Origin: an uncultured Acidobacteriota bacterium
GTDB taxonomy: Bacteria > Acidobacteriota > Terriglobia > Terriglobales > Acidobacteriaceae
Assembly: GCA_963819245.1 (NCBI GenBank)
Contig: CAWFVI010000006.1
Span: 8,155-72,154 of the forward strand
Length of the DNA stretch: 64,000 nucleotides
Reading direction: 5' to 3'
In this document: positions 44,314 through 64,000 of the stretch, one piece after another
Numbering within the stretch: position 1 is the stretch's first letter
Layout of the letters: the number at the start of each line of letters is the position of its first letter
Made by a program: the position numbers and the translations under genes
The notes under the pieces: model-generated
The model's input: the letters and a program-made list of their open reading frames with translations, nothing else
Database searches by the model: none
Told to the model about the DNA's origin: nothing

Positions 44314-44328
44314 CGTTTAATTCTTGCG

Positions 44329-45369
44329 CTACGATCTCAATGCCACGATCAAAGCCGTGATTACCAGGTTCGCAATGGCCAGCGGCAGCAGAAACTTCCA
44401 CCCGAACGCCATCAACTGGTCGTAGCGAAACCGCGGCAACGTGCCGCGCACCCATATATAAAGGAACAGAAACGTGAATATCTTGGCCGCAAACCAGAAC
44501 ACTGGCAGGATCGCTTGCACAATGGGCGGTCCGAAGCGATGCGGCCCATGCCATCCGCCCAGGAAAAGCAAAGTTGCCAGACATGCCACTGTAATCATGT
44601 TGGCGTACTCCGCCATGAAGAACATCGCGAATTTCATGGCGCTGTACTCGGTGTGGTATCCGGCGACCAGTTCGGTTTCCGCCTCCGGCAAATCGAACGG
44701 AATTCGATTGGTTTCGGCGTACGCAGCCATCAGATAGATGAAGAACGCGACGAACTGTCCCTGGAAAATGTTCCAGCGCGGGATGAATCCCCAAAATGTT
44801 CCGCTCTGCGCATCGACGATATCTCGTAAACTGAAACTACCCGCCATAATCAGTACGCCGACCAGCGAAAGGCCGAGTGAGATTTCGTAACTCACCATCT
44901 GCGCGCTGGCGCGCAATCCGCCCAGCAGCGAATATTTGCTGTTCGACGACCAGCCAGCCAGTGCAACGCCGTACACGCCTAACGAAGTGATGCCCAGCAC
45001 AATCAGCAGGCCGATGTTTACATCGACGATCTCGAGCGGCGTGTGGATTCCGAACACCGTAATCCAGTTGCCGACGGGAATGAGCGAGATCGAGGTTAGC
45101 GCGAAAATCAACGCGATCATCGGCGCCGCAATGTACAGCGGCTTGTACACGTGCGGCGGTAACAGATCCTCTTTGAAAATGAACTTGACTCCGTCCGCCA
45201 GCGGCTGCAGCAGGCCAAACGGGCCCACCCGCGTGGGGCCCCAGCGATTCTGAATGTGGCCCACAACCTTGCGCTCCAGCCACACCGTGTACGCGACAGC
45301 CGTAAGCAACACGCCGAGTGCGATCACAATCTTAATGACGGAAACGAGAATGAATACGCTTAGGCTCAA
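44329..45369 (-). CDS. nuoH: NADH-quinone oxidoreductase subunit H
   Basis: 'ERKVVGHIQNRWGPTRVGPFGLLQPLADG', 'GWSSNSKYSLLGGLRA', 'ETNRIPFDLPEAE'. Confidence 0.92.
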   Translation of the reverse strand: MSLSVFILVSVIKIVIALGVLLTAVAYTVWLERKVVGHIQNRWGPTRVGPFGLLQPLADGVKFIFKEDLLPPHVYKPLYIAAPMIALIFALTSISLIPVGNWITVFGIHTPLEIVDVNIGLLIVLGITSLGVYGVALAGWSSNSKYSLLGGLRASAQMVSYEISLGLSLVGVLIMAGSFSLRDIVDAQSGTFWGFIPRWNIFQGQFVAFFIYLMAAYAETNRIPFDLPEAETELVAGYHTEYSAMKFAMFFMAEYANMITVACLATLLFLGGWHGPHRFGPPIVQAILPVFWFAAKIFTFLFLYIWVRGTLPRFRYDQLMAFGWKFLLPLAIANLVITALIVALRS

Positions 45370-45462
45370 AAAGATCTTTCTTGAGAATTGTTACTTGCGT
45401 AATCCCAGGAGGCATCGGCCACGAAGGATATGCCGCATTCTGACACAGCTGCTTAATTGATA

Positions 45463-45515
45463 CTCCTCGCCCGGTCCTTTGCGGCTAAAGCCACTCGGGA
45501 TGATAGCGCGAGGAG
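45463..45515. repeat. Imperfect inverted repeat in the nuoG-nuoH spacer (arms ctcctcgc / gcgaggag enclosing a 'tcatcccgag'-type REP-like core)
   Basis: Read directly. Confidence 0.6.
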
Positions 45516-45525
45516 AGTTGGTAGT

Positions 45526-47889
45526 TCAGTCGGCGGCAACCTCTGCCTCGGCCGGCTGCTTGTGACGATTCTCAATTACCGAATTCAAAGTGCGGGAGTA
45601 ACGGCCCAATGTGCCCGAGCTGAAAAGACTATCCTGTGCGGGCACGATCAACTCCGGATTATGCAGAGCCCCAGGTCCGCTTCCGGACAAAGTCGTGTGC
45701 TGGTCGTTGCCGGCCAGGATATTCATCCGGGAGACATCGTAGCCGGGCACCAGTCGCTGAATCTCGTCCAGAATGGCCATGGGATCGAATGGGCTCATCT
45801 TCGGTTCGAGCCCGTTGGCTTCAAGCCATACCGCGTGCCGGTCTGCTTCGCCGGATTGCGCGCCGCGCGATTGTCCCATGTCTGTGCCGACTCCTCGCCC
45901 AAACGGGACCAACCGCTGAACTTCGAAACCCATCGCACCCGCAATACGGACGATCATCTCGAAATCAGATTTTGTGCCGGTGACCTCGCCCGCCTTCTTT
46001 ACCAACTGCAGGTCGCCGCACGTATTGGTGAACGTTCCTGACTTCTCGTAAGCATTGGCGGCAGGTAACACCACGTCGGCAATCACGGCCGTCTCGGTCA
46101 AGAACATGTCTTGCACCACCACGAAACTGTTCGAAAAGGCAAAGGGATCGATACCGAACTGTTCGACCGGATTTGCACCAACAACGTAAAAGGCCTTCAA
46201 CTGACCGGCTTTCGCGCTTTCGACCATCTCCGGCAGAGTCAAGCCAGGTGTTTGTGGGACGCTGTCCCACTCTTCGTGAAACTTGCCCTTATCCGAAACC
46301 CGCTGATAGCCCGGAAGCAGGTCGGGATAGAGGCCCATGTCGGCAGCGCCGCGCGAGTTGGAGTAGTCACTCAAGCAAACGACTTTCGCACCTCGGATAC
46401 CCGAGGCGAACTCCACAACCGAAGTAATGTCCCTGCCCCGGATCTCCGATCCAAAAATTATGACGAGGTTTGGTTCGCCGCGCAGTTTGTCACGCAAGGC
46501 GATCCAGGAATCGCGGCCGGTTTCTGCGCTCACAATTGCTTGTACAACCGCGTCGTCGCCCGCGAGAAACGCAGCCAGTTGTCCTTCTGATCCGGCCGGA
46601 ATCTGGACGAAGCTGGTCGCTTGCCGACGCAATTTAATAGGCTGCGAATTGATCACGTACAATCTTGCCCGATGCAGCCGGACATTATTCCGAATCTGCC
46701 ACGCGAGCAATGGATGCTGCTCAGTGGGATCGTTGCCGATCAGCAAAATCGCGGGGGAATTAAAAACCTCCCTCATGGTGGCGGTTGATTCCGGCTTTCT
46801 CGCGAGCGCTGCAGCCAGAGCCGGGAAGTCCGCAGTGCGATGGTGGTCGATGTTATTCGTTCCCAGCACCACGCGAGCGAACTTTTGCAGCAGGTAATTC
46901 TCTTCATTAGTGGTGCGGTTAGATCCGAAAGCCCCGATCGCTTGTCCCCCGGCCTGGTCGCAGATCTCCCTGAATCGTTTCCCGATCAACTCGAACGCTT
47001 CTTCCCATGTTGACGCAGTCAATCGTCCGTTCTTGCGGATCAACGGCTGCGTCAGGCGATCTTCGTGATGCGCAAAATCGAAAGCGTAACGTCCCTTGAT
47101 GCAAAGAAAGTCGCCATTGATGCCGCTCTTGTCGCGATTGTCCCCGCGCACAATCTCCATGCCGGTATCGGATCGGCGCACGCCCAGCGTCGTTTTGCAG
47201 CCGTCGGCACAGTGGGTGCAAGTCGTGCCTACGTGCTTCATCTCCCAGGGGCGCGTCTTGTAGCGATACGCGCCCGAAGTCAGCGCGCCCACGGGGCATA
47301 TGTCGATGCACATACCGCACTCTTCGCATTCGAGATGATCATCCTGATTGGGCGCGATGATTGAGCTCACGCCTCGGTTCTGCACGCCCAGAGCCCACAC
47401 ATCCATGCCCTCGCCACAGACCCGCACGCAGCGGTAGCACAAGATGCAACGCGGTCTGTCGAAGAAAACCACCGGTGACCACTGTTGCTCTTCCTTATGA
47501 TTCTTGGCGTCGATGTATTTCGATTCGGCGGCACCATAGGAGAAAGTCATATCCTGCAGTTCGCATTCGCCGCCCGCATCGCAAACCGGACAGTCGAGCG
47601 GATGATTGCCCAGCAGCAATTCAACCATGCCCTTGCGCGCCTGATGAATCTCCGGCGTGTCGGTCGAAACGATCATGCCCTCGCTGATCACCGTAGTGCA
47701 CGCGGTCTGCAGCTTGGGCATTTTTTCGACCTTGACCAGGCACATGCGGCAAGCGCCCTGCAATGAAAGATTAGGGTAGTAGCAGAATGAGGGCACCTCG
47801 ATGCCTACGCTCTTGCAAGCCTCAATGAGCAGGGTCCCGGCGGGAGCGGTGACCTTCTTGCCGTCCACCGTAATGTTTACGTCAGCCAT
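45526..47889 (-). CDS. nuoG: NADH-quinone oxidoreductase subunit G
   Basis: 'CYYPNLSLQGACRMC', 'HPLDCPVCDAGGECELQ', 'CILCYRCVRVC', 'CEECGMCIDICPVGAL', molybdopterin-oxidoreductase-like C-terminal part. Confidence 0.92.
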   Translation of the reverse strand: MADVNITVDGKKVTAPAGTLLIEACKSVGIEVPSFCYYPNLSLQGACRMCLVKVEKMPKLQTACTTVISEGMIVSTDTPEIHQARKGMVELLLGNHPLDCPVCDAGGECELQDMTFSYGAAESKYIDAKNHKEEQQWSPVVFFDRPRCILCYRCVRVCGEGMDVWALGVQNRGVSSIIAPNQDDHLECEECGMCIDICPVGALTSGAYRYKTRPWEMKHVGTTCTHCADGCKTTLGVRRSDTGMEIVRGDNRDKSGINGDFLCIKGRYAFDFAHHEDRLTQPLIRKNGRLTASTWEEAFELIGKRFREICDQAGGQAIGAFGSNRTTNEENYLLQKFARVVLGTNNIDHHRTADFPALAAALARKPESTATMREVFNSPAILLIGNDPTEQHPLLAWQIRNNVRLHRARLYVINSQPIKLRRQATSFVQIPAGSEGQLAAFLAGDDAVVQAIVSAETGRDSWIALRDKLRGEPNLVIIFGSEIRGRDITSVVEFASGIRGAKVVCLSDYSNSRGAADMGLYPDLLPGYQRVSDKGKFHEEWDSVPQTPGLTLPEMVESAKAGQLKAFYVVGANPVEQFGIDPFAFSNSFVVVQDMFLTETAVIADVVLPAANAYEKSGTFTNTCGDLQLVKKAGEVTGTKSDFEMIVRIAGAMGFEVQRLVPFGRGVGTDMGQSRGAQSGEADRHAVWLEANGLEPKMSPFDPMAILDEIQRLVPGYDVSRMNILAGNDQHTTLSGSGPGALHNPELIVPAQDSLFSSGTLGRYSRTLNSVIENRHKQPAEAEVAAD

Positions 47890-47894
47890 AAAAT

Positions 47895-47973
47895 CGTCGT
47901 TGGTCGTTCGTCGTCAGTCGTTGGCAGACGCATCGGTGTCGGCTGCGTGAGCCAACGACCAACGGCTAACGAC
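47895..47973. repeat. REP-like element filling the nuoF-nuoG spacer: GTCGTTGG twice forward, CCAACGAC once reverse; 9-bp stem 47917-47925/47951-47959
   Basis: Read directly. Confidence 0.7.
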
Positions 47974-49293
47974 TTAAGCCATTACCGCTGCTGGCTCACC
48001 CACGCCCACCTTCTCAAACGGACACGGCCTGCCTTCCAAATGATCTTCAAATTCCTTGCGGAATTTCTTCACGATGGAAATCGTCGGCATGGCCGCCGCG
48101 TCGCCCAGCGGACAGAAGGTGCGTCCCAGCATGTTTTCCGAAAGGTACTGAATGTTATCGATGTCTTTCTTAACTCCGCCACCGGCGTGAAATCGCGTCA
48201 ATGTTTTCTTCAACCAGTCCGTGCCTTCGCGGCAGGGGATGCACCATCCGCAACTCTCGTGCTGATAAAACTTCATGATCCGCAAAGCAAATTTCACCAT
48301 GCAGGTGGTGTCGTCCACGACGACGACGCCGCCTGAGCCGAGCATCGTTCCCGCTTTCATCATTGAATCAAAGTCCATGGAGACATCGATTTCGCCAGTT
48401 GTCAAGACTGGGCAACTGGAGCCGCCCGGAACCACAGCCTTCAAAGCGCGGCCATTCGAAATGCCACCACCCACTTCATAGATCATTCTTTTGAGGTTGT
48501 AGCCCATGGGCAACTCATATACCCCAGGCCGATTCAAGTGCCCGCTCAAACAGAACAGGCGCGTCCCGCCATTCTTGGGCGGCCCGAGCTTAGCAAACCA
48601 ATCTGCGCCGCCCAGCAGGATGTGGGGCACGCTCGCCAGCGTCTCTGCATTATTAATGACCGTCGGTCCGCCCCACAGCCCGACCACAGCCGGGAAGGGA
48701 GGCCGGATTCGGGGGATGCCGCGCTTGCCCTCGAGCGATTCCATCAGTGCCGACTCTTCGCCTACTTCATACGCCCCCGCACCGCCATGCCAGTAGACTT
48801 CGAAATCATAGCCGCTGCCGAAAATGTTCTTGCCCAGAAATCCCCGCGCGTAGGCATCCTTGATCGCCTTCTGCATGATCTCCAGTAAATATCGGTACTC
48901 GCCGCGGATGTAGATGTATCCAGCGTGCGAGCCCGTAGCAATTCCCGCGATCACCACACCTTCAATCACCGCGTGTGGGTCGTGCTCAAAAATCAGACGG
49001 TCTTTACAGGTGCCCGGCTCGCTCTCATCGCCATTACACAAAATGTATTTCGGCTTCGAGGATTGCTTGGGCACGAACGACCACTTCATCCCAGTGTTGA
49101 ATCCCGCTCCGCCGCGACCGCGCAGACCGGAATCCTTCACCAGATTGACGATGGCATCCGGCTGCATCCCCAGCGCTTTCTGGACGGCTTTGTAGCCGTC
49201 GAGCTCCAAGTAGCGATCGATATCAGTCGCACCCCTGCCAAAGCGTTTGGAGACGACTTTCACTTCGTCGGGATGGGAAACCAAGTCAGCCAT
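47974..49293 (-). CDS. nuoF: NADH-quinone oxidoreductase subunit F
   Basis: 'GLRGRGGAGFNTGMKW', 'NGDESEPGTCKDR', 'ESCGWCIPCREG'. Confidence 0.93.
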   Translation of the reverse strand: MADLVSHPDEVKVVSKRFGRGATDIDRYLELDGYKAVQKALGMQPDAIVNLVKDSGLRGRGGAGFNTGMKWSFVPKQSSKPKYILCNGDESEPGTCKDRLIFEHDPHAVIEGVVIAGIATGSHAGYIYIRGEYRYLLEIMQKAIKDAYARGFLGKNIFGSGYDFEVYWHGGAGAYEVGEESALMESLEGKRGIPRIRPPFPAVVGLWGGPTVINNAETLASVPHILLGGADWFAKLGPPKNGGTRLFCLSGHLNRPGVYELPMGYNLKRMIYEVGGGISNGRALKAVVPGGSSCPVLTTGEIDVSMDFDSMMKAGTMLGSGGVVVVDDTTCMVKFALRIMKFYQHESCGWCIPCREGTDWLKKTLTRFHAGGGVKKDIDNIQYLSENMLGRTFCPLGDAAAMPTISIVKKFRKEFEDHLEGRPCPFEKVGVGEPAAVMA

Positions 49294-49298
49294 GTTAG

Positions 49299-49330
49299 TG
49301 AGTCATTGACTCAATGAGTCATTGACTCAA
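49299..49330. repeat. Perfect tandem duplication of a 16-nt unit tgagtcattgactcaa, each containing the palindrome TGAGTCA-T-TGACTCA; spans the nuoE stop and the nuoE-nuoF spacer
   Basis: Copies at 49299-49314 and 49315-49330, identical. Confidence 0.9.
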
Positions 49331-49827
49331 TTCTTTCTATATCCGTCCAGAACCCTGTCGATCTTCTCCGCGGTCAAGTTCTCGTGGAAGTCATAATTCA
49401 CTTGCACAGCCGGAGCCCAACTGCATGCCCCGATGCATTCGACCTCCTCGAGCGAGAACATGCCGTCCGGCGTCGTGCCTTTGTGTCCGATGCCCAACCT
49501 CGCCTTGCAGTGATCGAGAAGCTCTTCACCACCGCGCAGCATGCACGCAATGTTCGTACAAACCTGCACATTGAATTTGCCGCGAGGCTTGGTCGTGAGC
49601 ATGGAGTAGTAGCTGATTACGTTGCTTACCTCGAGATCGGTCAAATCCAGCCGCTGCGCAATCTCATGAATTACGTCATGGTTTAGATAGCCGACTTCGT
49701 CCTGCGCATAAAGAAGCGTCGGCACGAGCACAGACCGCTTCGTCGGATAATGCGTCAGCATATCCGCGAAACGCGCCTCGAATTGGTCCGAAAACTTCAT
49801 AGCGTAGGAATTAATATCGATTGTCAT
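49327..49827 (-). CDS. nuoE: NADH-quinone oxidoreductase subunit E
   Basis: 2Fe-2S ligands 'VQVCTNIACMLRG' and 'VECIGACSWAP'. Confidence 0.92.
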   Translation of the reverse strand: MTIDINSYAMKFSDQFEARFADMLTHYPTKRSVLVPTLLYAQDEVGYLNHDVIHEIAQRLDLTDLEVSNVISYYSMLTTKPRGKFNVQVCTNIACMLRGGEELLDHCKARLGIGHKGTTPDGMFSLEEVECIGACSWAPAVQVNYDFHENLTAEKIDRVLDGYRKN

Positions 49828-49902
49828 TCCGAGCGGAGCGAGGAATCTGGGTTTGCGCCGGTGCTGGCGAGAACCTAGATCCCTCGCTTTGCTCGGGATG
49901 AC
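49823..49902. repeat. 80-nt REP/MITE-like imperfect inverted repeat in the nuoD-nuoE spacer (gtcattccgagcggagcgaggaatct ... agatccctcgctttgctcgggatgac)
   Basis: 26-nt arms, about 22/26 complementary; the left arm overlaps the nuoE start codon. Confidence 0.75.
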
Positions 49903-49966
49903 AAGTTTAGAGTTCCTTCCCTCGTGCCCTTAATTGGGTAGCGCCTTTTCTAATCCCGATCATTGT

Positions 49967-51172
49967 CTACCGGTCAATTTCCCCTAGTACAATATCGATC
50001 GATCCGATCGCCGCCACTACATCAGCGAGCAATCTTCCTTCGCACATCTTCGGAAGCAGTTGCAGATTCGCCAGGCAAGCCGCCCGCATGTGCACACGAT
50101 ACGGCTTAGCCGTGCCGTCGCTCACCACGTAATACCCCATTTCGCCACGCGGCGATTCCACGGCTTGATAAACCTCGCCCGCCGGAACCGCAAAGCCCTC
50201 GGTAATGATCTTGAAGTGATAGATGAGCGCTTCCATTTGCGTCTTCATCTTTTCGCGGTCCGGCAACACAACCTTCGGCGCATCCGCTTTGATCGGACCT
50301 TCCGGCATACCGTCGAGCGCCTGCTGCACGATCGCGATCGATTCACGCAGTTCCTGAACCCGACAAATGTATCGGGCGAACACATCGCCGTCCTGCGCCA
50401 CCGGCACTTTGAACTTGAAGTTCTCATAGCCTGAGTACGGCATATCCCGCCGCAGATCGAAGTCGACACCGCTGCCCCGCAAGGTAGGTCCGCTCGCGCC
50501 CAGTGCGATGGCATCTTCCGCCGTAATCCGCGCCACGCCTTTGGTCCGCATCGTCCAGATGGGGTTTCCTGTCAGCAGGTTTTCGTACTCATCCACCTTG
50601 GAAGGGAAGCGATTAGCGAAATCGCGCACCCGGTCAAAGAATCCCAGCGGCGGTTCGAGAGCCACGCCGCCGATGCGGAAATACGACGTCATCATGCGCT
50701 GGCCGCTGACCGCCTCGAACAAACGCAAAACATCCTCACGCTCGCGGAAGCAGTAAAGAAAAACGGTGAGCGCCCCAATGTCCATGGCGTGCGTACCCAG
50801 CCAGACGAGGTGCGAGTTGATGCGGGTCAACTCATTCATCATCACCCGCAGCCATTGCGCCTTAGGAGGGATCTCCAGCCCGAGCAGTTTCTCGACCGCC
50901 AACGCATAGCAGAGGTTGTTGGTCATGGGGCAGAGGTAATCGATGCGGTCGGTAAGCGGCACTACCTGCTGGTAAAACTTCGCTTCGCAAGTTTTCTCGA
51001 TCCCGGTGTGCAGATACCCGATGTCGGGCATGAGCCGCACCACGGTTTCGCCGTCGATCTCAAGAATCAGCCGCAACACTCCGTGCGTGGACGGGTGCTG
51101 CGGTCCCATGTTCAGGATCATCGTCCGATCCTGGCCGGGCTCAAGCACGGGCGTGGATGTCATGTGGGCCAT
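49967..51172 (-). CDS. nuoD: NADH-quinone oxidoreductase subunit D
   Basis: 'MILNMGPQHPSTHGVLRL', C-terminal 'IGSIDIVLGEIDR'. Confidence 0.92.
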   Translation of the reverse strand: MAHMTSTPVLEPGQDRTMILNMGPQHPSTHGVLRLILEIDGETVVRLMPDIGYLHTGIEKTCEAKFYQQVVPLTDRIDYLCPMTNNLCYALAVEKLLGLEIPPKAQWLRVMMNELTRINSHLVWLGTHAMDIGALTVFLYCFREREDVLRLFEAVSGQRMMTSYFRIGGVALEPPLGFFDRVRDFANRFPSKVDEYENLLTGNPIWTMRTKGVARITAEDAIALGASGPTLRGSGVDFDLRRDMPYSGYENFKFKVPVAQDGDVFARYICRVQELRESIAIVQQALDGMPEGPIKADAPKVVLPDREKMKTQMEALIYHFKIITEGFAVPAGEVYQAVESPRGEMGYYVVSDGTAKPYRVHMRAACLANLQLLPKMCEGRLLADVVAAIGSIDIVLGEIDR

Positions 51173-51180
51173 AGCGAAGT

Positions 51181-51678
51181 TTAACGGTAGCCCTCCACGG
51201 GATAATCTTTGCGCAGGGGATGGCCCTCCCAATCTTCCGGCATCTGAATACGCCGTAGATAAGGATGCCCGGTAAAGCGAATTCCGAACAGGTCGAAAAC
51301 CTCGCGCTCGAAATAATTCGCCGACGGCCAAACCGAGGTTACCGATTCCACCACCGGGCTGTCGCTGTCCAGCCGCACCTTCAGCCTGACCCGTTCCTTA
51401 TTGGGAATCGACAGCAATTCGTACACCACCTCGAACCGCGGCTGCGAGGGATACCAATCCACACAGGTCACATCGGAGAGATAGTTAAAGGGACAGCTCG
51501 GATCGTCCCGCAGGATCACGCAAGCCTCTCGGATCGATGATCGCTCGATGTAGATGGTCATCTCATCCCGGTCAAACTTCGCTCCCTCGACCGCAGCCGA
51601 GTTCCACGAACGCAGTCTCACCACTGCGGGGTGGTCTTTCAGAGCCTCAAGGTCGGTGATGGCGGGGATCAGCGGCAT
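51181..51678 (-). CDS. nuoC: NADH-quinone oxidoreductase subunit C
   Basis: 'WPSANYFEREVFDLFGIRFTGHP', 'PLRKDYP'. Its ATG shares a base with the nuoA TAA. Confidence 0.92.
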   Translation of the reverse strand: MPLIPAITDLEALKDHPAVVRLRSWNSAAVEGAKFDRDEMTIYIERSSIREACVILRDDPSCPFNYLSDVTCVDWYPSQPRFEVVYELLSIPNKERVRLKVRLDSDSPVVESVTSVWPSANYFEREVFDLFGIRFTGHPYLRRIQMPEDWEGHPLRKDYPVEGYR

Positions 51679-54160: not shown

Positions 54161-55348
54161 CTAAGTTTTCACTCGATCCAACAACACGGGTACCTGCTCG
54201 ACAATCTCGATGTCGAACCCTTCAAGCGCCGGCACCTTTCGGGGATGGTTCGTGAGCAGCCTGATGCGCCGTAGGTTCAAATCCGAAAGAATCTGCGCTC
54301 CAATGCCGATCTCGCGCTGCGTCTTGCGCTCGCTCTCTGGTAGCGATGGAAGGCGCTTGTCGCGGTGGAAGGTGAGCATCTTGCGCTCTCCGATGCTCTC
54401 GACCGAGAAGCCCTTCGAAGTTTGATGCAAATAGATCAGAGCGCCCCGGCCTTCGCGCGCAATGGCCTGCATCGAGCCTTCAATGGTTGCATGACAATCG
54501 CAAGCCGTCGATCCGAATACGTCGCCCATCACGCAATGGGAGTGCATGCGGACCAGCACCGGCTCGCTGCTTTCGATATCGCCGCGCGCGTCCCCTTTAA
54601 CCAATGCGACGTGAGATTCGCCGCCGTCGACTTCACTCTCATAGGCAATCAGGCGAAACTCTCCGTGACGGGTGCCAATCAGCGCTTCTCCGACCCGGTG
54701 CACGTAGCGTTCATGCTGCATGCGGTAGCGGATGAGTTCGGCCACGGTCAGCATTTTCATGCTGTGGGTTTTGCAGAACTCAATGAGGTCGGGAACCCGC
54801 GCCATGGTTCCATCATCGCGCATGATCTCGCAGATCACTCCCGCTGGAATCAGTCCCGCCATGCGGGCTAAATCGACCGAAGCCTCGGTTTGGCCGGCGC
54901 GCACCAGCACTCCACCTTTGCGAGCCTGCAGCGGGAAGACATGTCCGGGACGCGCCAGATCCGAAGGGCGCGTGGCGGGATCGATCGCAACCTTGATCGT
55001 GCGGGCGCGATCATAAGCTGAAATTCCGGTGGTCACTCCCTCGCGGGCATCAATCGCTTCGCAAAAGGCGGTCCCATAGTTCGACGTGTTCTCTGCGGTC
55101 ATGGGACCGATATGCAAATGGTCCAAGCGCTCTTCGGTCATGGCCAGGCACACCAATCCGCGACCGTACTTGGCCATGAAGTTGATCAGTTCGGGAGTAA
55201 CTTTCTCGGCGGCGAGTGTCAGATCGCCCTCGTTCTCGCGATCCTCGTCATCCACTACGACCACCATGCGGCCGGAGCGGACCTCCTCGATGGCGGTCGG
55301 AACGTCGGTAAATGCCGATTGCGGCACCATAACAACCGATTGTAACAA
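54161..55348 (-). CDS. ribBA: Bifunctional 3,4-dihydroxy-2-butanone-4-phosphate synthase / GTP cyclohydrolase II
   Basis: '[14 protein letters not shown]', '[19 protein letters not shown]'. Start is either TTG at 55348 (SD GAAGG) or ATG at 55330. Confidence 0.92.
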
Positions 55349-56822: not shown

Positions 56823-57932
56823 CTACTTGAATGCAGCCGTGGCCACGGCTACCAGGGAATCCGCGCAGCCATAATAAAGGAACCATTGGTCGTGAAAGTA
56901 CACCAGGCCCTCGGCAAAGGTGGTTCCGGCGGCATACTGACCGGTTTTCTCGTAGGGCATCACCGGCTTCAGGACCGGCTGTTCGGTCTGCTGTACCAGT
57001 CGGGCAGGATCGTTCTTGTCGAAAAGCGCCTCGCCCGCGGCATAGGCGTTGGGGCCTAAACCCGGGTCCCCGTCTTTGACGGCGTTTTTGCCGTTGTAGA
57101 GGACGACGATCCCGTTTGAGGTCAGAACTGGCGGCGGCCCGGTTTCTGGAAACGTGCTGTCAAAATGCCCGGGCCGAGGACCCAACAATTCGACGGGTGC
57201 GCCCTTTACATCCTCCACCGGACTCCAGTGGATCAGGTCGGTTGAAGTGGCCAGATGGATAGCGCCTTCGCCCCAATACATCCAGTATTTTCCATTGATC
57301 TTGGCCGCGATCAGACGCCCTTTGTCGAAATGCGTCACGATTCCCGCCGACTTGTATTTCAGCTCGGCGTACTTGCCATTTGCCGCCGTTGCGAAGGCTG
57401 TCCCGTGCTTCGTCCAATGCGCCAGGTCGGGCGACGTTGCCATGCCCACCGAATACGTCTTTCGGTTCCATTGGGTATAGGTGAGAACATAGGTGCCATC
57501 TTCTGCCTCGACAATGCGCGGATCTTCGACGCCACCCGGCCATTCGCGAGACTTTTGGGCATCGTCAGCTGCGTAAAACACGGGATCAGCTCGTCGCACA
57601 AAGGAAATACCGTCCTTGCTCTCGGCCAAGCCGAGCCGCGAGGTGTGTCCCCCGATTGCCATTGTCCCGGAGTCGTCCTCGGCTCGATAAAGGACATACA
57701 CATTTCCATCGCGTGCGATTGCGGCGGGATTAAAGGTGTGCAGCGCTTCCCAATGCACCGGTTTCTTAAGTATTGGATCGGGAAAGATTGATTCGGGCCG
57801 TGGAGCAATGACCGGATTCCCGCTCGCAGGTCGGGTAAAAGGACCGATCGCCCATTTCTGGGCCTCCTGCGCTTGCAAGGCGACGGTAGAAAATAGCAAC
57901 GCTGCCAGCCAGAGCGTTCGTCCTGCCTTCAT
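56823..57932 (-). CDS. Glycoside hydrolase family 130-like protein (beta-mannoside phosphorylase/hydrolase fold), with signal peptide
   Basis: 'HTFNPAAIARDGNVYVLYRAED', 'SRLGLAESKDGISF', 'GGVEDPRIVEAEDGTYVLTYT'. Signal 'MKAGRTLWLAALLFSTVALQA'. Confidence 0.75.
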   Translation of the reverse strand: MKAGRTLWLAALLFSTVALQAQEAQKWAIGPFTRPASGNPVIAPRPESIFPDPILKKPVHWEALHTFNPAAIARDGNVYVLYRAEDDSGTMAIGGHTSRLGLAESKDGISFVRRADPVFYAADDAQKSREWPGGVEDPRIVEAEDGTYVLTYTQWNRKTYSVGMATSPDLAHWTKHGTAFATAANGKYAELKYKSAGIVTHFDKGRLIAAKINGKYWMYWGEGAIHLATSTDLIHWSPVEDVKGAPVELLGPRPGHFDSTFPETGPPPVLTSNGIVVLYNGKNAVKDGDPGLGPNAYAAGEALFDKNDPARLVQQTEQPVLKPVMPYEKTGQYAAGTTFAEGLVYFHDQWFLYYGCADSLVAVATAAFK

Positions 57933-58109
57933 GCGAACTAGTATATTCGTTCGCGAACCGATGCTAATTAGGCCGAGTGGGATGGGTATTGGCAAATCCA
58001 TTCCTCATTAAGGACCCCACATCTCAGGTTACCGCCGTAACCCGGTCACAACCCCGATTCGTTGACCGGCAACCGGCGCCAACCTACATTTCATTAAGGA
58101 GGAAGCATC

Positions 58110-58271: not shown

Positions 58272-58296
58272 AGTTCTTTAACGGAGTTTGTTAGCG

Positions 58297-59442
58297 ATGA
58301 GTCTGCAAGCGCTGGTTCTGTGTTCTGACGACAAGATCATACGGGTGCTGCGGCGCGTCCTCAGCGACCTGGAGATTGGCGTTGAACTGTGTACCGATGC
58401 GGATTCGTCTGTCCGCAAATTGACCCGGCGGAGATTTGAAGCGGTCGTGGTTGATTGCAACGACGAGGACATGGCGGCGCAAGTGCTCAAGAGTGTCCGC
58501 TCCGCTCCATGCAACAAGCGCTCCATCGCCGTGGCGATGATTGATGGACAAAAGGCTGTGCGCAGCGCTTTCGCCTTGGGCGCGCATTTCGTTCTCTACA
58601 AACCCATCTTCGCGGAACGTGCGCGAACCAGTTTTCGCGCTGCCCGCGCATTAATGAAGTGCGAACGTCGCCGCAACACGCGGGTCACAGTGCAGATTCC
58701 CGTAGTCTTGGTTAACGAGAGTGGAGCAGGCCAGAGAAAGGCGGTCACCTCTGATATTAGTCAGGGAGGTATGTCGGTGAAGCTCTCGCGTCGTGCCCGG
58801 AAATCCGATTCCATGCGGGTGAAATTTACGTTGCCCGGAACCGACGATAGCGTCGAGTGTGCCGCGGAAACGGCGTGGGACAGCGGCGGAGCGCAGGCGG
58901 GCATTCGCTTTGTGAATCTGTCTCCGGAGCAGCGGGAACGTCTGAAGTCGTGGTTGGGACGGCATTCCCCGGAGATGGAGCCAGATGATCCCCCGGTTCC
59001 TTGCAAACTGACCGACCTAAGCTCGGGTGGTTGCTATCTGGAGATGGCCGCGCCCCTTCCCGTCAATACGAGAGTCCTTCTGACCATGCGGATTCCGAAA
59101 TTCGAGAGCCGAGCGGAAGGCGTGGTGCGCGTGATGCACCCGGAGATTGGTATGGGAGTGGAGTTCACGAGGACAACCAAGCAGCAGCGCGAGCATTTAG
59201 AAGAGTTCATCAAGGTCCTTACCAATAGCAAAGGCGTTGAGCCCGAACTCCTGGTGGAACCCGAAGGAATGAACGATGCCGAAGCAGGCATTTCCCAGCA
59301 AACAGTCTTGGAGGAGATGGAAGACCCCTTGCTAGAACTCTTTCAGGGAAACAAGGAATTCACCACTGAAAATTTCTTTGCGGAACTTCGCAGGCAGAGA
59401 AATTCCATTCCGCTCAAGACCAAGGCTGCCGCTGCCGTTTAG
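58297..59442 (+). CDS. REC (receiver)-PilZ-PilZ protein, putative c-di-GMP effector
   Basis: REC 'VLCSDD', 'AVVVDCND', 'FVLYKP'. PilZ-1 'RRRNTR...DISQGG'. PilZ-2 'DLSSGG' without a clear RxxxR. Confidence 0.8.
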   Translation: MSLQALVLCSDDKIIRVLRRVLSDLEIGVELCTDADSSVRKLTRRRFEAVVVDCNDEDMAAQVLKSVRSAPCNKRSIAVAMIDGQKAVRSAFALGAHFVLYKPIFAERARTSFRAARALMKCERRRNTRVTVQIPVVLVNESGAGQRKAVTSDISQGGMSVKLSRRARKSDSMRVKFTLPGTDDSVECAAETAWDSGGAQAGIRFVNLSPEQRERLKSWLGRHSPEMEPDDPPVPCKLTDLSSGGCYLEMAAPLPVNTRVLLTMRIPKFESRAEGVVRVMHPEIGMGVEFTRTTKQQREHLEEFIKVLTNSKGVEPELLVEPEGMNDAEAGISQQTVLEEMEDPLLELFQGNKEFTTENFFAELRRQRNSIPLKTKAAAAV

Positions 59443-59550
59443 GAGTACTCTTTCGCAGTTTCGGTTTGTGATTCCACACTCACCCGCATTGCTCTATACC
59501 AACATTTCTTGAACAGGCCACGATTGACAAAAACGTGACCGAATTTTTAC

Positions 59551-59588
59551 GGCTCCATGACAACCTTGGAGCCGTTTCCTTTTTATCT
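59551..59588 (+). terminator. Intrinsic terminator: ggctcca-N9-tggagcc followed by gtttcctttttatctt
   Basis: 7-bp stem plus T-rich tail, 109 nt after the PilZ gene stop. Confidence 0.6.
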
Positions 59589-59707
59589 TCGAATTGTCAC
59601 TGCACCGGCACACCTGGCTTTAACTGCTGCTGACATGTGCGATGTCGGGAGGTTGTGGTCGGCACAAGCCGGAGGAGAAGTGTGCCCGAACAGTCGAGGA
59701 GACGGAT

Positions 59708-61057
59708 ATGCGAATTGCGGTTGCGAAAAGGATTGGCACGCAGTTGTTGTTAGGGGCAGCGCTGTTGGCGGCGGCCCGGCCCGCGCATGCTATTCCTGCT
59801 TTCGCCCGCAAGTACGGTCTTCCGTGTTCCGCCTGTCACGAAGCGTGGCCCATGCTAAACAATTTTGGCCAAACCTTCAAAGACAACGGGTATCAGTTGG
59901 GCAACGACCGGGACGCTCCGATCTATCAGCAACCGGCTTACTGGCCCATCATGTTTCGCGTGACGCCGCAGTGGCACAGGGAGAGCAACAACCGCGGAGC
60001 GGTGGATAAGGTTCCGGGCGACGCTAGCAGCGGTCTCGTGGAGTCAGCAGTTACCCAATCGGGTTTCGACACTAGCGCAATTGACATAGTCACAGCAGGT
60101 ACGCTGTCCAGAAACATCTCATTCTTCGTGCAGCCGTTCATCGGCAACGGAGGCGCTGCTCTAGAAGAAGCATGGGTACGCTTCGACAATCTTGTCCGAT
60201 CGCGCTGGCTAAACGTCAAGATGGGAAAGTTTGAACTGGATGAGCCGATTTCACAAGAGCGCGGTCTGACACTCAACAATACTGGGGGCATTTACTACAA
60301 TTATTTTTTTACCCCGCCTGGCGATAATAACTTTTTCACCGGCATTGGCAACTTGCAACTCGGGGCCGAGGTATCGGGACACTCTGACAACGATTACACT
60401 CGCTACTCCGTCGCCGTGGTTAGCAACAACAATGGTGCGACCGGCTTGCAGGCAAGCCAAGCCTACAACGTCTATACCAATTTCAATCAAGCCTTCGAAG
60501 TGGCGGGGCTGGGCTTGCAGCGGATCGGCGTCTACAGTTACGTCGGCCAATCCCCGACCTTCTACCAGACCAGCGGAGGCAACCCAATCCCTGGGACGGG
60601 CATGGGGAATCGCGGCTTTTATCGCGCGGGTGCGTACGGGCAGTGGTACGTGGGAAAGTTTGATTTTGAAACCTTTTACGAGCACGGACACGACAACGTT
60701 TTCCTTGGCAATGCAGTTCCCGCAAATCAACCCTCAAAGTTGCCGGCCGGTGCCGCCGGTCCATCCTGGAATGGTGGGTTCGTGGAAGCGCATTACGACT
60801 ACAATCCTCGGCTCATCTTGATCGGCAAATATGAACTGGTCCGAATGTCACAGCAGGCGAATCCCAGCATTCGCGCCAACGCCGGGAATCTGGACACTTG
60901 GACTGTTGGTTATCGGTGGTATCCGATCATGAACCCTCGGGCTGGCTTAGCCTGGGTGCAGGAATATTCACGCATCGTCAATGCTGGACCGCCGACGCTT
61001 TCCGGCAAGGACGACATTAATAACAGCTTCCTGATGGGATTCGATTTTGATTTTTGA
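59708..61057 (+). CDS. Outer-membrane beta-barrel protein with a single N-terminal CXXCH haem motif (fused monohaem cytochrome-porin, Cyc2/Cyt572-like architecture)
   Basis: SD GAGGAGA. Signal 'LLLGAALLAAARPAHA'. Mature N-terminus 'IPAFARKYGLPCSACHEAWPMLNNFG'. Alternating-pattern strands with aromatic girdles. C-terminal 'FLMGFDFDF*'. Confidence 0.75.
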   Translation: MRIAVAKRIGTQLLLGAALLAAARPAHAIPAFARKYGLPCSACHEAWPMLNNFGQTFKDNGYQLGNDRDAPIYQQPAYWPIMFRVTPQWHRESNNRGAVDKVPGDASSGLVESAVTQSGFDTSAIDIVTAGTLSRNISFFVQPFIGNGGAALEEAWVRFDNLVRSRWLNVKMGKFELDEPISQERGLTLNNTGGIYYNYFFTPPGDNNFFTGIGNLQLGAEVSGHSDNDYTRYSVAVVSNNNGATGLQASQAYNVYTNFNQAFEVAGLGLQRIGVYSYVGQSPTFYQTSGGNPIPGTGMGNRGFYRAGAYGQWYVGKFDFETFYEHGHDNVFLGNAVPANQPSKLPAGAAGPSWNGGFVEAHYDYNPRLILIGKYELVRMSQQANPSIRANAGNLDTWTVGYRWYPIMNPRAGLAWVQEYSRIVNAGPPTLSGKDDINNSFLMGFDFDF

Positions 61058-61076
61058 GGCGAGAGGAGAACGGTTC

Positions 61077-61871
61077 ATGCGCATCAAGATCAGTTTGGCC
61101 GGCAGCGCGGTCTTCTTTGTCCTCCTGTCGAGTCTGACCACAGTCGCGCAGCAGACCCGCGTCGGCAATCTGGTAGGCAATGCCAACCACGGCAAGGCAT
61201 TGTACCAGCGCTATTGCATTTTCTGCCACGGTCAGTATGGCGACGGAAACGGAGAGAGCGCACCTTATCTCGATCCTAAGCCTCGCGACTTCACCAAGGC
61301 CACGTTCAAGTGTCGATCCACGCCGAGCGGCAGTCTGCCTTTGGATAGCGACCTCTATGACACGATCAGCCGAGGCATCCATGCCAGCGGAATGCCTTCC
61401 TGGAAGCCTCTGTTGCGCCAGGAGCGGGTCGACCTGGTCGCGTACATCAAGACGTTTTCTCCGCGATTTCAGGAGGAGAAACCGGCCGCCCCGTTGGTGA
61501 TACCTCCTGAACCTCCGACTTCGCCGGAGAGCGTGAAGCGCGGTGCAGAACTTTTCCAAAGCATGAACTGCTGGCTTTGCCATGGTAAACAAGGACGGGG
61601 AAACGGTCCGTCTGCCTCTTCGCTCACGGACAGTAAAGGCTATCCGATCACACCTTTCGATTTCACTAGCGGAACCCGGTTCAAGTGTGGAGAGTCGGAC
61701 CAGGCGATATTTCGTGATTTGATGACGGGCCTTGATGGCACTCCCATGCCCTCTTTTGCCGATGCTTTGAAGCCAGACCAGGTATGGGATATCGCGCATT
61801 ACATCGACGCGCTTCGTACGGCTAAAGGGATACCGGTCGAAGCACCGGCCGAGCCGAAAGTCGAGCCCTAG
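61077..61871 (+). CDS. Periplasmic dihaem c-type cytochrome (two class-I domains, c4-like)
   Basis: Signal peptide. 'CIFCHGQYGDGNG...GMPSW' and 'CWLCHGKQGRGNG...GTPMPSF'. 19-nt gap after the upstream gene. Confidence 0.85.
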   Translation: MRIKISLAGSAVFFVLLSSLTTVAQQTRVGNLVGNANHGKALYQRYCIFCHGQYGDGNGESAPYLDPKPRDFTKATFKCRSTPSGSLPLDSDLYDTISRGIHASGMPSWKPLLRQERVDLVAYIKTFSPRFQEEKPAAPLVIPPEPPTSPESVKRGAELFQSMNCWLCHGKQGRGNGPSASSLTDSKGYPITPFDFTSGTRFKCGESDQAIFRDLMTGLDGTPMPSFADALKPDQVWDIAHYIDALRTAKGIPVEAPAEPKVEP

Positions 61872-61983
61872 GCGGACTGAGATTCATGCAACACACAGAT
61901 CCAGCGTCCGACATCTGACGCAATCGGTTGTACTTGAAGTATTCAACGGCTTTCGCAAGCGAGTAAAAAGAAAGCAGGTGTCT

Positions 61984-62715
61984 ATGAGAACCAAATACGT
62001 CCTGGTCGCGATAATTGCAGCATTTGTTTTATCCCTGGCCGCTCACCTTCCTGCAGGCGCCGCAGATGCGGCGGCCGTCGGATCGGTCAAAGGTACTGCC
62101 AAGTTTGAAGGCTCAGCGCTGAAGCCCACTCGCATCGACATGTCATCCGATCCTAACTGTGCGAAGGCGCACCCCACGCCCGCTACAACTGAGGATCTTG
62201 TGATTGGTGCGAATGGCGGCCTGGAAAACGTTGTCGTTTATGTTGCCGACGGTTTGGGAGATAAAACTTTTGAACCGCCGCAACAGCCTGCGGTGATCGA
62301 GCAGAAAGGCTGCCAATACAAACCGCACGTACTCGCATTGCAAACCAATCAGAAGCTCGATGTCGTCAACGATGACGCGACCACGCACAACATCCATCCC
62401 ATGCCCAACAACAACCGGGAGTGGAACAAGACCCAGCCCCACGGAATGCCGGTGGAAGAATCGTTCCCACGGGAAGAGATCGCTATTCCCGTCAAGTGCA
62501 ATGTGCATCCGTGGATGCGGGGCTATATCGCGGTATTCAAACATCCGTATTTTATGGTGACGGACAAAGACGGTAACTTCGATCTGAAGGATCTTCCGCC
62601 AGGCACCTACACGATCAAGGCATGGCAGGAGAAACTCGGTACCCAGAGCCAGAAGATTACGATCGGGGCGGGCGAAATCAAGACTGTCGACTTCGTGTTC
62701 AAGTCGGGTTCATAA
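61984..62715 (+). CDS. Secreted cupredoxin-like protein with candidate type-1 Cu ligands, plus a C-terminal CarboxypepD_reg-like beta-sandwich segment
   Basis: Signal 'VLVAIIAAFVLSLAAHLPAGA'. 'THNIHP' His. 'KCNVHPWM' (C-x2-H-x2-M, amicyanin-type loop). 'DGNFDLKDLPPGTYTIKAW'. Confidence 0.75.
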   Translation: MRTKYVLVAIIAAFVLSLAAHLPAGAADAAAVGSVKGTAKFEGSALKPTRIDMSSDPNCAKAHPTPATTEDLVIGANGGLENVVVYVADGLGDKTFEPPQQPAVIEQKGCQYKPHVLALQTNQKLDVVNDDATTHNIHPMPNNNREWNKTQPHGMPVEESFPREEIAIPVKCNVHPWMRGYIAVFKHPYFMVTDKDGNFDLKDLPPGTYTIKAWQEKLGTQSQKITIGAGEIKTVDFVFKSGS

Positions 62716-62724
62716 CGCGCTGTC

Positions 62725-63780
62725 TCATCCCTTGCGACGGGGGATGTGCAGGGAGCACACGCATCGCCGACAGATCGGGTTTGTAGCAACATCGAGGTTT
62801 GCTCGAAACTTCAGCGCTTCGGGACCATTCACGATCTCGTGCAGCGTGTGATTGTGAATATTCCCGAGCGATGGATGGAAGAAGCAGGGGCGCACCTCGC
62901 CCGATGCCTCGATTACGGCGGAGACCCAAGGGGCATTGCAGAGTGGCGCGATGTTCTGTGCCTGGCCAAGGTGGGCGCGAAAGTGGTGCACGATTCGGCG
63001 CAGCTTGCTGGCTGATTCGACCACAAACCCGGAGTCTAAATCGAGGCTGTGTTCGCTGATGAGGCGCTCAATTTCTGCGTTCAGATCCTCGACTTCGTCG
63101 GCATTCAGCGCAACCCGGTCTTGGTGTTCGGGTGTCCAGCCCACTGTGCGGTTGAATGCGTCCGAGGTAAGATCCGCTGCGAGAAAAGAAATCGAGTTCA
63201 AGCCGATTTCCTTCGCCGACTGCACTGTGCAGCAAAGCGTGCGGTGATTCGCTTTCTGTATAGTGCAGCGCGCTCGCACCTGCATATCCGGACGGACTTT
63301 TCGCAACGCTGCAACTCCGGCGGTTATTCGTTCAAAAGTGTGGGGCACACGCCGTATGTGGTCATGCACCGCGGGCGGCCCGTCGAGCGAAACGATGACA
63401 TCGTCGATAGTCGCAGCGATGGATTCAGCGTGAGATTCCAACAACAGCCCAGCGGTAAGCATCGTCACGCGAATTCCCTCGGCTCGAATCGTTCGTGCCA
63501 AAGAACTCAACTCACCGTTCATTTGTGGCTCGCCGCCGGTAAACACTATCCAGCGCACACCCATTTCACGAAGCGAAGCCAGTTGTCGCTCAAGATCCGT
63601 CGGCGTGATTTCTCTGGGTTCACGAATCCGCCAGATGTCACACATCACGCAACGGCAGTTGCACTGATTATGGGGAGAAATGACGACGACAGGCATAGTG
63701 CTTATCTGATGCGCAGAGAGGCCGAGGGCATCGGCGCCCGCCGATTCAAAAGGGGCCGAAATGGATACGAGGCCATTCAT
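62725..63780 (-). CDS. Radical SAM protein with a C-terminal SPASM-like Cys-rich domain
   Basis: 'SPHNQCNCRCVMCDIW' (CX3CX2C), 'VFTGGEPQM'. C-terminal 'CNAPW...RPCFF...CRRCVCSL'. Confidence 0.85.
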   Translation of the reverse strand: MNGLVSISAPFESAGADALGLSAHQISTMPVVVISPHNQCNCRCVMCDIWRIREPREITPTDLERQLASLREMGVRWIVFTGGEPQMNGELSSLARTIRAEGIRVTMLTAGLLLESHAESIAATIDDVIVSLDGPPAVHDHIRRVPHTFERITAGVAALRKVRPDMQVRARCTIQKANHRTLCCTVQSAKEIGLNSISFLAADLTSDAFNRTVGWTPEHQDRVALNADEVEDLNAEIERLISEHSLDLDSGFVVESASKLRRIVHHFRAHLGQAQNIAPLCNAPWVSAVIEASGEVRPCFFHPSLGNIHNHTLHEIVNGPEALKFRANLDVATNPICRRCVCSLHIPRRKG

Positions 63781-63792
63781 CAGAGTTGCTAT

Positions 63793-64000
63793 TCAAGCCG
63801 GCGGCCCTGCACGCCGAAATTCCAGCAAGATGTGGTCGGCAAGCGTGCGAATGCCGGGGCAGCGCCCCAAGAATGAATCGGCTCGCACACTCAAGCCGAA
63901 TAAGCCTGGAAACTGATTCGCCCACGTTTCGAGATAACTGGGTGGGACAAAAACGCCTATTCCTTTAACGGATTTGAGCTGAAATTCGGGAGCGAAAGTT
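63793..64000 (-). CDS. 3' end of an unidentified CDS running off the window (last 68 codons), 12 nt upstream of the radical SAM gene
   Basis: Hand translation: ...TFAPEFQLKSVKGIGVFVPPSYLETWANQFPGLFGLSVRADSFLGRCPGIRTLADHILLEFRRAGPPA*. Not in the ORF track because it has no in-window start. Confidence 0.5.
   Translation of the reverse strand, partial: TFAPEFQLKSVKGIGVFVPPSYLETWANQFPGLFGLSVRADSFLGRCPGIRTLADHILLEFRRAGPPA

Follow-up and report, generated by a model that had tools for sequence, protein, structure and literature searches.

A Cyc2-type cytochrome-porin gene with dihaem cytochrome and cupredoxin partners in soil Acidobacteriota: a candidate electron conduit

Background

In the MtoAB, PioAB and MtrCAB systems, electrons cross the outer membrane by way of a decahaem cytochrome, a separate protein that is threaded through a 26-strand barrel. 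Cyc2 of Acidithiobacillus ferrooxidans and of Mariprofundus ferrooxydans PV-1 and Cyt572 of Leptospirillum belong to a family recognized by a signal peptide, a single CXXCH motif, the sequence AXPXFAR[Q/K][T/Y] upstream of that motif and PXL four residues downstream; its members have at least 365 amino acids (aa) and are porins by structure prediction, of about 16 strands and similar to OprO/OprP (PMC8406198). The upstream sequence is stated by Keffer et al. (2021, mBio; PMC8406198) to be unique to Cyc2. The rus operon of Acidithiobacillus has the gene order cyc2-cyc1-cup-coxBACD(-rus) (PMC10654088). The present report concerns three co-directional genes, designated G1, G2 and G3, that occupy positions 59708-62715 (+ strand) of a 64-kb stretch of DNA from an uncultured member of the Acidobacteriota; the whole stretch is referred to throughout as the window. 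An earlier note, made from the sequence of the window, had located the three genes correctly and had likened them to the rus genes. The interpretation of the trio as a Cyc2-type module is supported by the comparisons described below: it is probably an electron conduit that begins in the outer membrane, crosses the periplasm and ends at a terminal oxidase, with Fe(II) as the most likely substrate.

In acidic soils, peat and thawing permafrost, few bacteria are as abundant as the Acidobacteriota. How far carbon and phosphorus are retained in these settings is controlled by Fe(II)/Fe(III) cycling, and iron oxidation there is usually credited to Gallionellaceae, to other specialists or to chemistry. 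The remark in the earlier note that such a module is not a textbook feature of the phylum is fair, but surveys based on FeGenie already predict Acidobacteriota metagenome-assembled genomes (MAGs) to be iron oxidisers, mostly through cyc2 (PMC13594681), and MAGs of five phyla from Antarctic soils have also been reported to carry cyc2. The literature searched contained no description of the conserved trio, of a rus-like fusion to cox genes in Acidobacteriota or Anaeromyxobacter, or of a nested cupredoxin partner, and nothing on Cyc2 together with Sulfotelmatobacter or Terriglobia; the name "Ca. Acidiferrum" in a Ferrovaceae paper of 2026 refers to something unrelated.

The G1 cytochrome-porin

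The gene at the head of the trio, and the parts that can be recognized in its predicted product, are as follows.

59708..61057, + strand: G1, predicted Cyc2-family fused monohaem cytochrome-porin, 449 aa (open reading frame (ORF), motif, AlphaFold2, Foldseek)
59708..59791, + strand: G1 predicted signal peptide, residues 1-28, ending in AHA with I as the next residue (sequence; AlphaFold2 helix at residues 2-21)
59789..59857, + strand: G1 haem-binding signature, residues 28-50, AIPAFARKY-GLP-CSACH-EAW-PML (motif of Keffer et al.)
59948..61054, + strand: G1 predicted beta-barrel porin domain, residues 81-449, C-terminal GFDFDF (DSSP on the model, Foldseek)

A GGAGA Shine-Dalgarno sequence (about 59697) lies 6 nucleotides (nt) 5' of the G1 ATG. 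Nearly all G1 homologues are 446-450 aa in length, and for this reason the start at 59708 is preferred over an upstream ATG at 59642, which is unlikely to be the one used. After the leader, which ends in AHA before I, the mature sequence reads IPAFARKYGLPCSACHEAWPML, and in all 25 aligned family members a hydrophobic leader likewise ends just before the motif. The lone CXXCH of G1 (CSACH) occupies residues 40-44, some 12 residues past the mature N-terminus, and the residues around it match the published Cyc2 signature completely, block by block: A-I-P-A-F-A-R-K-Y, GLP, C-S-A-C-H, EAW and P-M-L. In an alignment of the 25 full-length members, which are 28-53% identical to G1, residues P30, F32, C40, C43, H44 and P48 are invariant, and A33, R34 and L50 are at least 90% conserved. 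Among 158 homologues of at least 365 aa, exactly one CXXCH is found in 157, the exact published Cyc2 motif in 141 and a loose form of it in 155; the C-terminal residue is F, Y or W in 142. On sequence comparison of this kind, the single CXXCH and the motif of G1 are not chance features.

The family to which G1 belongs comprises more than 3858 clusters at 90% identity in a word-indexed search and 2729 representatives at 50% identity (E up to 1e-3), and the named top matches are from Terriglobales or Ca. Sulfotelmatobacter MAGs. No Pfam or NCBIfam model matches G1, no PDB sequence is matched either by the single sequence or by a profile, and tblastn against plasmids gave no match. A search begun from a distant family member returned only metagenomic proteins and Anaeromyxobacter, with no biochemically validated Cyc2 among them.

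Predicted structure agrees with the motif evidence. The AlphaFold2 model of G1, built on the 25-member alignment, has a mean predicted local distance difference test (pLDDT) of 82 and a predicted template-modelling score (pTM) of 0.80. DSSP finds a provisional 17-18 beta-strand segments in it, continuous over residues 81-448; 16 strands are reported for Cyc2 of PV-1. Comparison of the model with the PDB by Foldseek gave BpsOmp38 (1.4e-12) and, as second-best match, OprP (2o4v, 2.6e-12), followed by PorB/OmpF-type porins and many other porins of 16 strands. For Cyc2 of Mariprofundus PV-1, the structural homologues named in the literature are OprP/OprO (PMC8406198).

Beyond the haem motif, a single His or Met is conserved in the protein, namely H225 (nt 60380-60382), which is present in 96% of 97 diverse members and lies in a conserved Q-x-G-x-E-x-x-G-H barrel strand. 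We infer that H225 may be the distal haem ligand or part of a metal site; to our knowledge, a conserved barrel histidine of this kind has not been described as a candidate second haem ligand in known Cyc2.

G1 is placed in the Cyc2 family because all of the sequence and fold features tested agree with those of the family, and membership is well supported on these predicted features. It shares with the Cyc2 proteins of Acidithiobacillus, Mariprofundus and Leptospirillum the signal peptide, the single early CXXCH, both flanking motifs, a porin barrel (some 370 aa) whose structural matches are OprP-like, and the C-terminal aromatic residue. The C-terminal aromatic beta-signal (GFDFDF) points to an outer-membrane location. 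The earlier note had read in G1 a signal peptide, one CXXCH close to the mature N-terminus and a barrel ending in Phe, each of which was found. It had also made its proposal depend on conservation of the CXXCH among homologues and on a barrel fold; the motif is conserved to the extent given above, and structure prediction gives a porin barrel that resembles OprP. G1 differs from the Cyc2 of known iron oxidisers in its hosts, which are soil Acidobacteriota regarded as heterotrophs. As in MtoAB, PioAB and MtrCAB, electrons would cross the outer membrane through a barrel-associated haem protein, but in G1 a single haem would be fused to a small barrel. A survey of ORFs for CXXCH found no multihaem cytochrome in the 64-kb window; the only credible CXXCH-bearing ORFs in its whole length are G1 and G2.

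The G2 dihaem cytochrome

The second gene of the trio is the following.

61077..61871, + strand: G2, predicted periplasmic dihaem class I cytochrome c with signal peptide, 264 aa (Pfam, PDB profile match)

G2 begins 19 nt past the G1 stop codon, and its product matches the Pfam families Cytochrome_CBB3 and Cytochrom_C. Past each of its two CXXCH motifs (C47/C50/H51 and C165/C168/H169) comes a Met: M106, within "GMPSW", for the first and M224, within "PMPSF", for the second. A set of 72 orthologues shows no variation in the two haem motifs or in M106, and 99% of them have M224. The closest solved relative is chain B of PDB entry 6H5L (E 6.9e-56), a "conserved hypothetical cytochrome" deposited with a Kuenenia stuttgartiensis hydroxylamine oxidoreductase (HAO)-like protein. 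The HAO identity of the entry was confirmed, and chain B is presumably a redox partner of the Kuenenia HAO-like protein. The PDB matches of G2 (E up to 0.01) include no c4 cytochrome and no Cyc1 chain. The periplasmic dihaem protein that the earlier note had recognized, with a Met downstream of each CXXCH, is thereby confirmed in outline, but its description as c4-like is not, the best match being 6H5L chain B.

Two further cysteines of G2, C79 (about 61311) and C204 (about 61686), are invariant as well. There is one in each haem domain, within an F-K-C motif, and they could take part in disulfides or in an additional metal site.

The G3 nested cupredoxin

The last gene of the trio encodes a protein in which one domain appears to be set within another.

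61978..62715, + strand: G3, predicted secreted type-1 cupredoxin in a CarboxypepD_reg-like beta-sandwich, 245 aa from a GTG (profiles, Pfam)
62275-62535, + strand: predicted cupredoxin domain of G3, about residues 100-186 (profile comparison)

An ATG at 61984 is conserved in 67 of 67 aligned G3 sequences and is more likely to be the true start than the GTG at 61978. Since either position may be the start, the gap between G2 and G3 is given as 106-112 nt; the earlier note had given the two gaps of the trio as 19 nt and about 110 nt.

The sole Pfam match in G3 is CarboxypepD_reg, over residues 192-240, and no Pfam cupredoxin model matches at E up to 0.01, while the JGI label on G3 homologues is "plastocyanin". 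The assignment to the cupredoxins comes from conserved ligands and from profiles. Residues H137, C174, H177 and M180 are 99-100% conserved in 67 sequences. When a profile of 34 orthologues was compared with the PDB, it matched the C-terminal cupredoxin domain of the copper nitrite reductase 9CCK (9.4e-7), the Nitrosopumilus blue copper protein 5FC9 (1.8e-5) and amicyanins (about 5e-3), with weaker matches to pseudoazurin and plastocyanin; no rusticyanin and no AcoP chain was matched at E up to 10. Alignment of G3 with amicyanin by hhalign (88.8% probability) sets THNIH on PHNVH and CNVHPWMRG on CTPHPFMRG, so that the four conserved residues of G3 fall onto the His...Cys-x2-His-x2-Met residues of amicyanin, which we take to be its copper ligands H53, C92, H95 and M98.

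Pieces of the CarboxypepD_reg-like sandwich lie on both flanks of the G3 cupredoxin, which is therefore viewed as a nested domain. The AlphaFold2 model of G3, made from a shallow alignment, is unreliable (pLDDT 64 overall, below 50 at residues 132-182), and the cupredoxin fold accordingly rests on profile comparison. G3 resembles cupredoxins of the amicyanin/plastocyanin type in its ligand pattern and in the motifs "HN(I/V)H" and "C..HP(W/F)M(R/K)G", which are as in amicyanin; it differs in that the domain is inserted into a second beta-sandwich and in having other conserved residues. The secreted cupredoxin of the earlier note is supported by the profiles, with its His, Cys, His and Met ligands conserved, but it is not a plain one.

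The other residues of G3 that are conserved are a pair of cysteines, C61 and C112, and two histidines, H117 and H140; their conservation suggests a disulfide or a second metal site.

Conservation of the trio and its link to cox genes

Relatives of the locus were sought in one genome per GTDB species with a query pattern made from 8 sequences. At least 599 pattern matches were obtained, at least 565 of which encode a relative of G1, and the locus counts given here refer to the best 80 of these. Nearly all of the 80 are from MAGs of Acidobacteriota, some of them recovered from soil, peat, palsa and fen, and Ca. Sulfotelmatobacter, Ca. Solibacter and Ca. Acidoferrum are among them. The product of cyc2 in locus L001 is 94% identical to G1. 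In 77 of the 80, with Cyc2 identities as low as 50%, the cyc2 homologue is found together with orthologues of both G2 and G3.

Clustering of the ORFs of the 80 loci gave two architectures. In type A (Cyc2 at least 69% identical), which includes the window, the trio faces a convergent cluster of radical-SAM genes, and the upstream gene is usually a small OmpR-type winged-helix gene, the place of which is taken by a PilZ-protein gene in the window, L001 and L003. In type B (Cyc2 50-57% identical), the trio is followed by genes matching COX2, COX1, COX3 and COX4_pro, and often by a haem o synthase gene (ctaB; TIGR01473, above cut-off). A coxB gene follows the trio in 40 of the 80 loci, and coxA and coxB together in 38. 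CoxB of L071 keeps the CuA site CTQLCGLGHYNM, and the enzyme would therefore be an oxidase fed by cytochrome c or a cupredoxin and not a quinol oxidase.

The resemblance to the rus operon is one of organization. The same three-part logic is seen (a predicted outer-membrane monohaem porin, a dihaem cytochrome c and a cupredoxin); the type B gene order is colinear with that of rus (coxB-coxA-coxC-coxD, sometimes with ctaB), and the type B cupredoxin gene occupies the cup/AcoP position between the cytochrome gene and coxB. The differences are that the clade of the window has no adjacent oxidase genes, that G2 is closest to Kuenenia 6H5L chain B and not to c4 or Cyc1, and that G3 has amicyanin-like ligand spacing and a nested domain, with no separate rusticyanin gene. 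By sequence, then, G2 and G3 are apparently analogues, not orthologues, of Cyc1 and of rusticyanin/AcoP.

The association of the three genes extends to loci whose Cyc2 is only 30-35% identical to G1. The order is cupredoxin, G3-like, cyc2, dihaem and G3-like in the metagenomic contig L085; coxA-coxC-coxD-coxB, cyc2, dihaem and G3-like in L086; and two G3-like genes, cyc2 and dihaem in L087. In the cultured Anaeromyxobacter diazotrophicus (BJTG01000003.1, 371-389 kb), a G3-like gene and SCO1 are found upstream on the opposite strand, and the main run opens with cox III, IV, II, I and III and continues with genes for a cytochrome c, Cyc2 and the dihaem protein. At these distances the G2 orthologues are still 46-54% identical and the G3 orthologues 28-43%; G2 is therefore better conserved than Cyc2. 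In a Gemmatimonadaceae genome, cyc2 is accompanied by an uncalled G2 homologue and a plain Copper-bind cupredoxin. As far as gene content can tell, homologues of the trio are consistently linked to aerobic respiratory electron transfer. The earlier note had supposed that a consistent link to an unrelated pathway would speak against it; the survey of neighbourhoods found no such pathway, and half of the 80 loci, together with Anaeromyxobacter, tie the trio to an aa3-type oxidase operon.

Two unassigned genes are present in 25-28 of the type B loci (L032-L080) and absent from the window. Their products are of about 437 aa, with a weak SH3_3 match, and about 308 aa (examples are L044:2632-3945 (-) and L042:6565-7491 (-)); the genes are usually divergent and upstream, but in L032-L037 they lie between cyc2 and the dihaem gene. 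Five loci with the typical acidobacterial operon (L042, L071, L073, L076 and L077; Cyc2 50-54% identical) have been assigned to bins of Ca. Dormiibacterota or Gemmatimonadales, which may reflect mis-binning or lateral transfer.

Proposed function and alternatives

In the mechanism proposed for the trio, G1 would lie in the outer membrane as a porin barrel with one c-type haem on its short N-terminal domain, at the periplasmic side. A dissolved reductant, most likely Fe2+, would enter or contact the pore and be oxidised at the haem, to which H225 is possibly a ligand. The electron would pass from the G1 haem to soluble G2, to copper-loaded G3, or to both in the periplasm, and then to a CuA-containing cytochrome c oxidase of the aa3 type. 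Genes for such an oxidase are directly downstream of the trio in many relatives; in the organism of the window, they would be encoded elsewhere in the genome.

Several observations weigh against this account. The hosts belong to lineages regarded as heterotrophs. The loci of the window's clade, in which Cyc2 is at least 69% identical, all lack an oxidase gene at a distance of up to 8 kb from the trio, and the 64-kb window has no cox gene anywhere, in keeping with the earlier note, which had seen no terminal oxidase next to the trio. The haem domain of the G1 model was predicted with low confidence (pLDDT under 50 for residues 20-30 and 39-49), as is expected because it was modelled without its cofactor. 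Keffer et al. point out that Cyc2 homologues outside the known iron oxidisers may have other functions (PMC8406198), and Ca. Acidoferrum, which carries the cox-linked version of the trio, has been proposed to be an Fe(III) reducer (PMC7980381).

The same conduit might thus serve in a role other than energy-yielding iron oxidation, acting on other reductants outside the cell or in the periplasm, such as reduced humic quinones, Mn(II) or Cu(I), or removing Fe2+ for protection by draining its electrons to oxygen and so limiting Fenton chemistry. This is unlikely, though still a possibility to be reckoned with. The hosts, according to the record titles of the 80 loci, are abundant heterotrophs of soil and peat, and a catalase gene adjoins the homologue in the Gemmatimonadaceae genome; the neighbourhood holds no gene for carbon fixation or reverse electron flow, the complex I operon 7 kb away being taken as coincidental, and the latitude that Keffer et al. 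leave for additional functions in bacteria that are not iron oxidisers (PMC8406198) favours such a role too. The validated members of the Cyc2 family, however, all act on Fe(II), and a porin of small size with one haem is expected to require a small soluble substrate, for instance Fe2+ (PMC8406198). Half of the relatives have the trio tightly joined to a dedicated oxidase operon, which likewise suggests respiration and not mere protection.

Mtr and other porin-cytochrome systems can carry electrons either way, and Anaeromyxobacter, a carrier of the homologue, is associated with Fe(III) reduction; both facts count in favour of an outward conduit, in which metabolic electrons would flow by way of G2/G3 to the G1 haem and on to Fe(III) or humic substances outside the cell, which would be reduced. 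The absence of an adjacent oxidase in the window's clade and the association of the homologue carrier Ca. Acidoferrum with Fe(III) reduction (PMC7980381) fit outward flow as well. It is nevertheless improbable, since the genes linked to the trio in relatives are those of a CuA-type oxidase, not of quinol dehydrogenases or multihaem cytochromes, and the window itself is without a multihaem cytochrome. Blue copper proteins and class I cytochromes with His/Met ligation are, moreover, typically of high potential and feed oxidases or denitrification enzymes. Most remote is the view that the three genes are neighbours with no shared redox function, G1 being an ordinary porin with a chance CXXCH and G3 a copper chaperone or a structural CarboxypepD_reg protein active in oxidase assembly. 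It could appeal to the single Pfam match of G3, to the poor G3 model, and to the presence of SCO1/SenC, an oxidase assembly factor, in the Anaeromyxobacter cluster; it is very unlikely because the haem and copper ligands are invariant. The haem motif is essentially unchanged among members only 28-35% identical, the G3 ligands align residue for residue with those of amicyanin, and the trio stays together through rearrangements across phyla.

With the inward, Fe(II)-oxidising conduit preferred on this evidence, a broader proposal may be put forward, although only tentatively and with considerable doubt: that the abundant Acidobacteriota of soil and peat (Terriglobales, Ca. Acidoferrales and relatives) are unrecognised aerobic or microaerobic Fe(II) oxidisers with a rus-like pathway assembled from non-orthologous parts (Cyc2, a Kuenenia-type dihaem cytochrome and a nested cupredoxin), which in the clade of the window has become uncoupled from the oxidase. 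Under this proposal, the trio of the window's clade may feed a different acceptor or serve another purpose tied to the B12/radical-SAM cluster. If the module works as its make-up implies, dissolved Fe(II) could be an electron source for a large number of species among the ordinary soil heterotrophs. A marker more precise than cyc2 alone is offered by the trio, whether cox genes are included or not, and A. diazotrophicus as a culturable carrier; residues offered for mutation are C40/C43/H44 and H225 of G1 and H137/C174/H177/M180 of G3.

Upstream region and transcription

The region between the preceding gene and G1 contains several features of its own.

59443..59707, + strand: upstream region of G1 with hairpin, U-tract, repeats and ribosome-binding site (folding, locus comparison)

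A hairpin at 59549-59575 (folding free energy -16.2 kcal/mol, z -5.2) is followed by a U-tract that extends to 59590. About 190 nt upstream of G1 are conserved with L001 and L003, and the hairpin lies inside this conserved region. The earlier note had described the upstream region as bounded by a terminator; a scan with promoter and terminator consensus sequences recovered no terminator upstream of G1, with overall counts not above chance; a strong hairpin with a U-tract is present at 59549-59590. No terminator was detected between G1, G2 and G3, and RNA folding z-scores are near 0, with no structured element seen, in the G2-G3 spacer and in the region 3' of G3. A single transcript for G1-G3 fits with the short gaps (19 nt and 106-112 nt) and with the lack of a detectable terminator between the genes.

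Repeats of the forms TGACAA, GTGAC and inverted TTGTCAC are found at 59525, 59535, 59558 and 59594. Their offsets from the start codon, of about -184, -173, -150 and -114, are fixed in the window and in L001-L004 although the upstream genes differ among the loci, and L005 shares the repeats in part, with copies at -172 and -112. The loop of the hairpin at 59549-59575 is itself one of the repeat elements, and L003 keeps the loop sequence but not the stem. On this pattern, the region 59520-59600 looks more like a candidate protein-binding site than an RNA structure.

Neighbouring genes

The trio is flanked by two genes with identifiable domains.

58288..59442, + strand: protein with two PilZ domains (TIGR02266-type) and a degenerate receiver domain (Pfam PilZ 1.6e-27; Response_reg below cut-off)
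62725..63780, - strand: radical SAM/SPASM protein, convergent downstream neighbour (Pfam Radical_SAM, SPASM)

The PilZ gene is conserved upstream of the trio only in L001 and L003, a limited distribution that argues against the PilZ protein as a dedicated regulator; a link of the PilZ protein to regulation of the trio is possible but weak. In L086, a distant locus, a Response_reg plus PilZ gene stands two genes away from the module.

The radical-SAM cluster consists of one radical SAM/SPASM gene, a class I methyltransferase gene and up to three genes for B12-binding radical SAM proteins; in the window, the start of the methyltransferase gene is seen at 63811-63999 (- strand). Of the 80 loci, 22 have the cluster, and all 22 belong to the window's clade (among L003-L024 and L045). 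In L007 it lies upstream of cyc2 and is co-directional with it, and the linkage has therefore survived rearrangement. From gene order, the cluster is regarded as context of the trio and not as an established part of the module. The best NCBIfam matches of the B12-binding radical SAM genes, all sub-threshold, are BchE, HpnJ, HpnR and C-methyltransferases of ribosomally synthesized and post-translationally modified peptides (RiPPs).

A complex I (nuo) operon is found at 38489-51331 (-), about 7 kb upstream of the trio and on the other strand; it includes genes for three antiporter-like subunits (488, 523 and 671 aa), NuoH, NuoG, NuoF and NuoD. No evidence was found that complex I is part of the module, although conservation of the linkage among relatives was not examined, and it is regarded as a housekeeping operon that lies here by coincidence. 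Between the nuo operon and the cytochrome genes, 56823-58001 (-) and 54161-55348 (-) encode a GH130 protein, with a sub-threshold best NCBIfam match to beta-1,2-mannosidase, and a bifunctional RibBA; these look like ordinary housekeeping or glycan-use genes.

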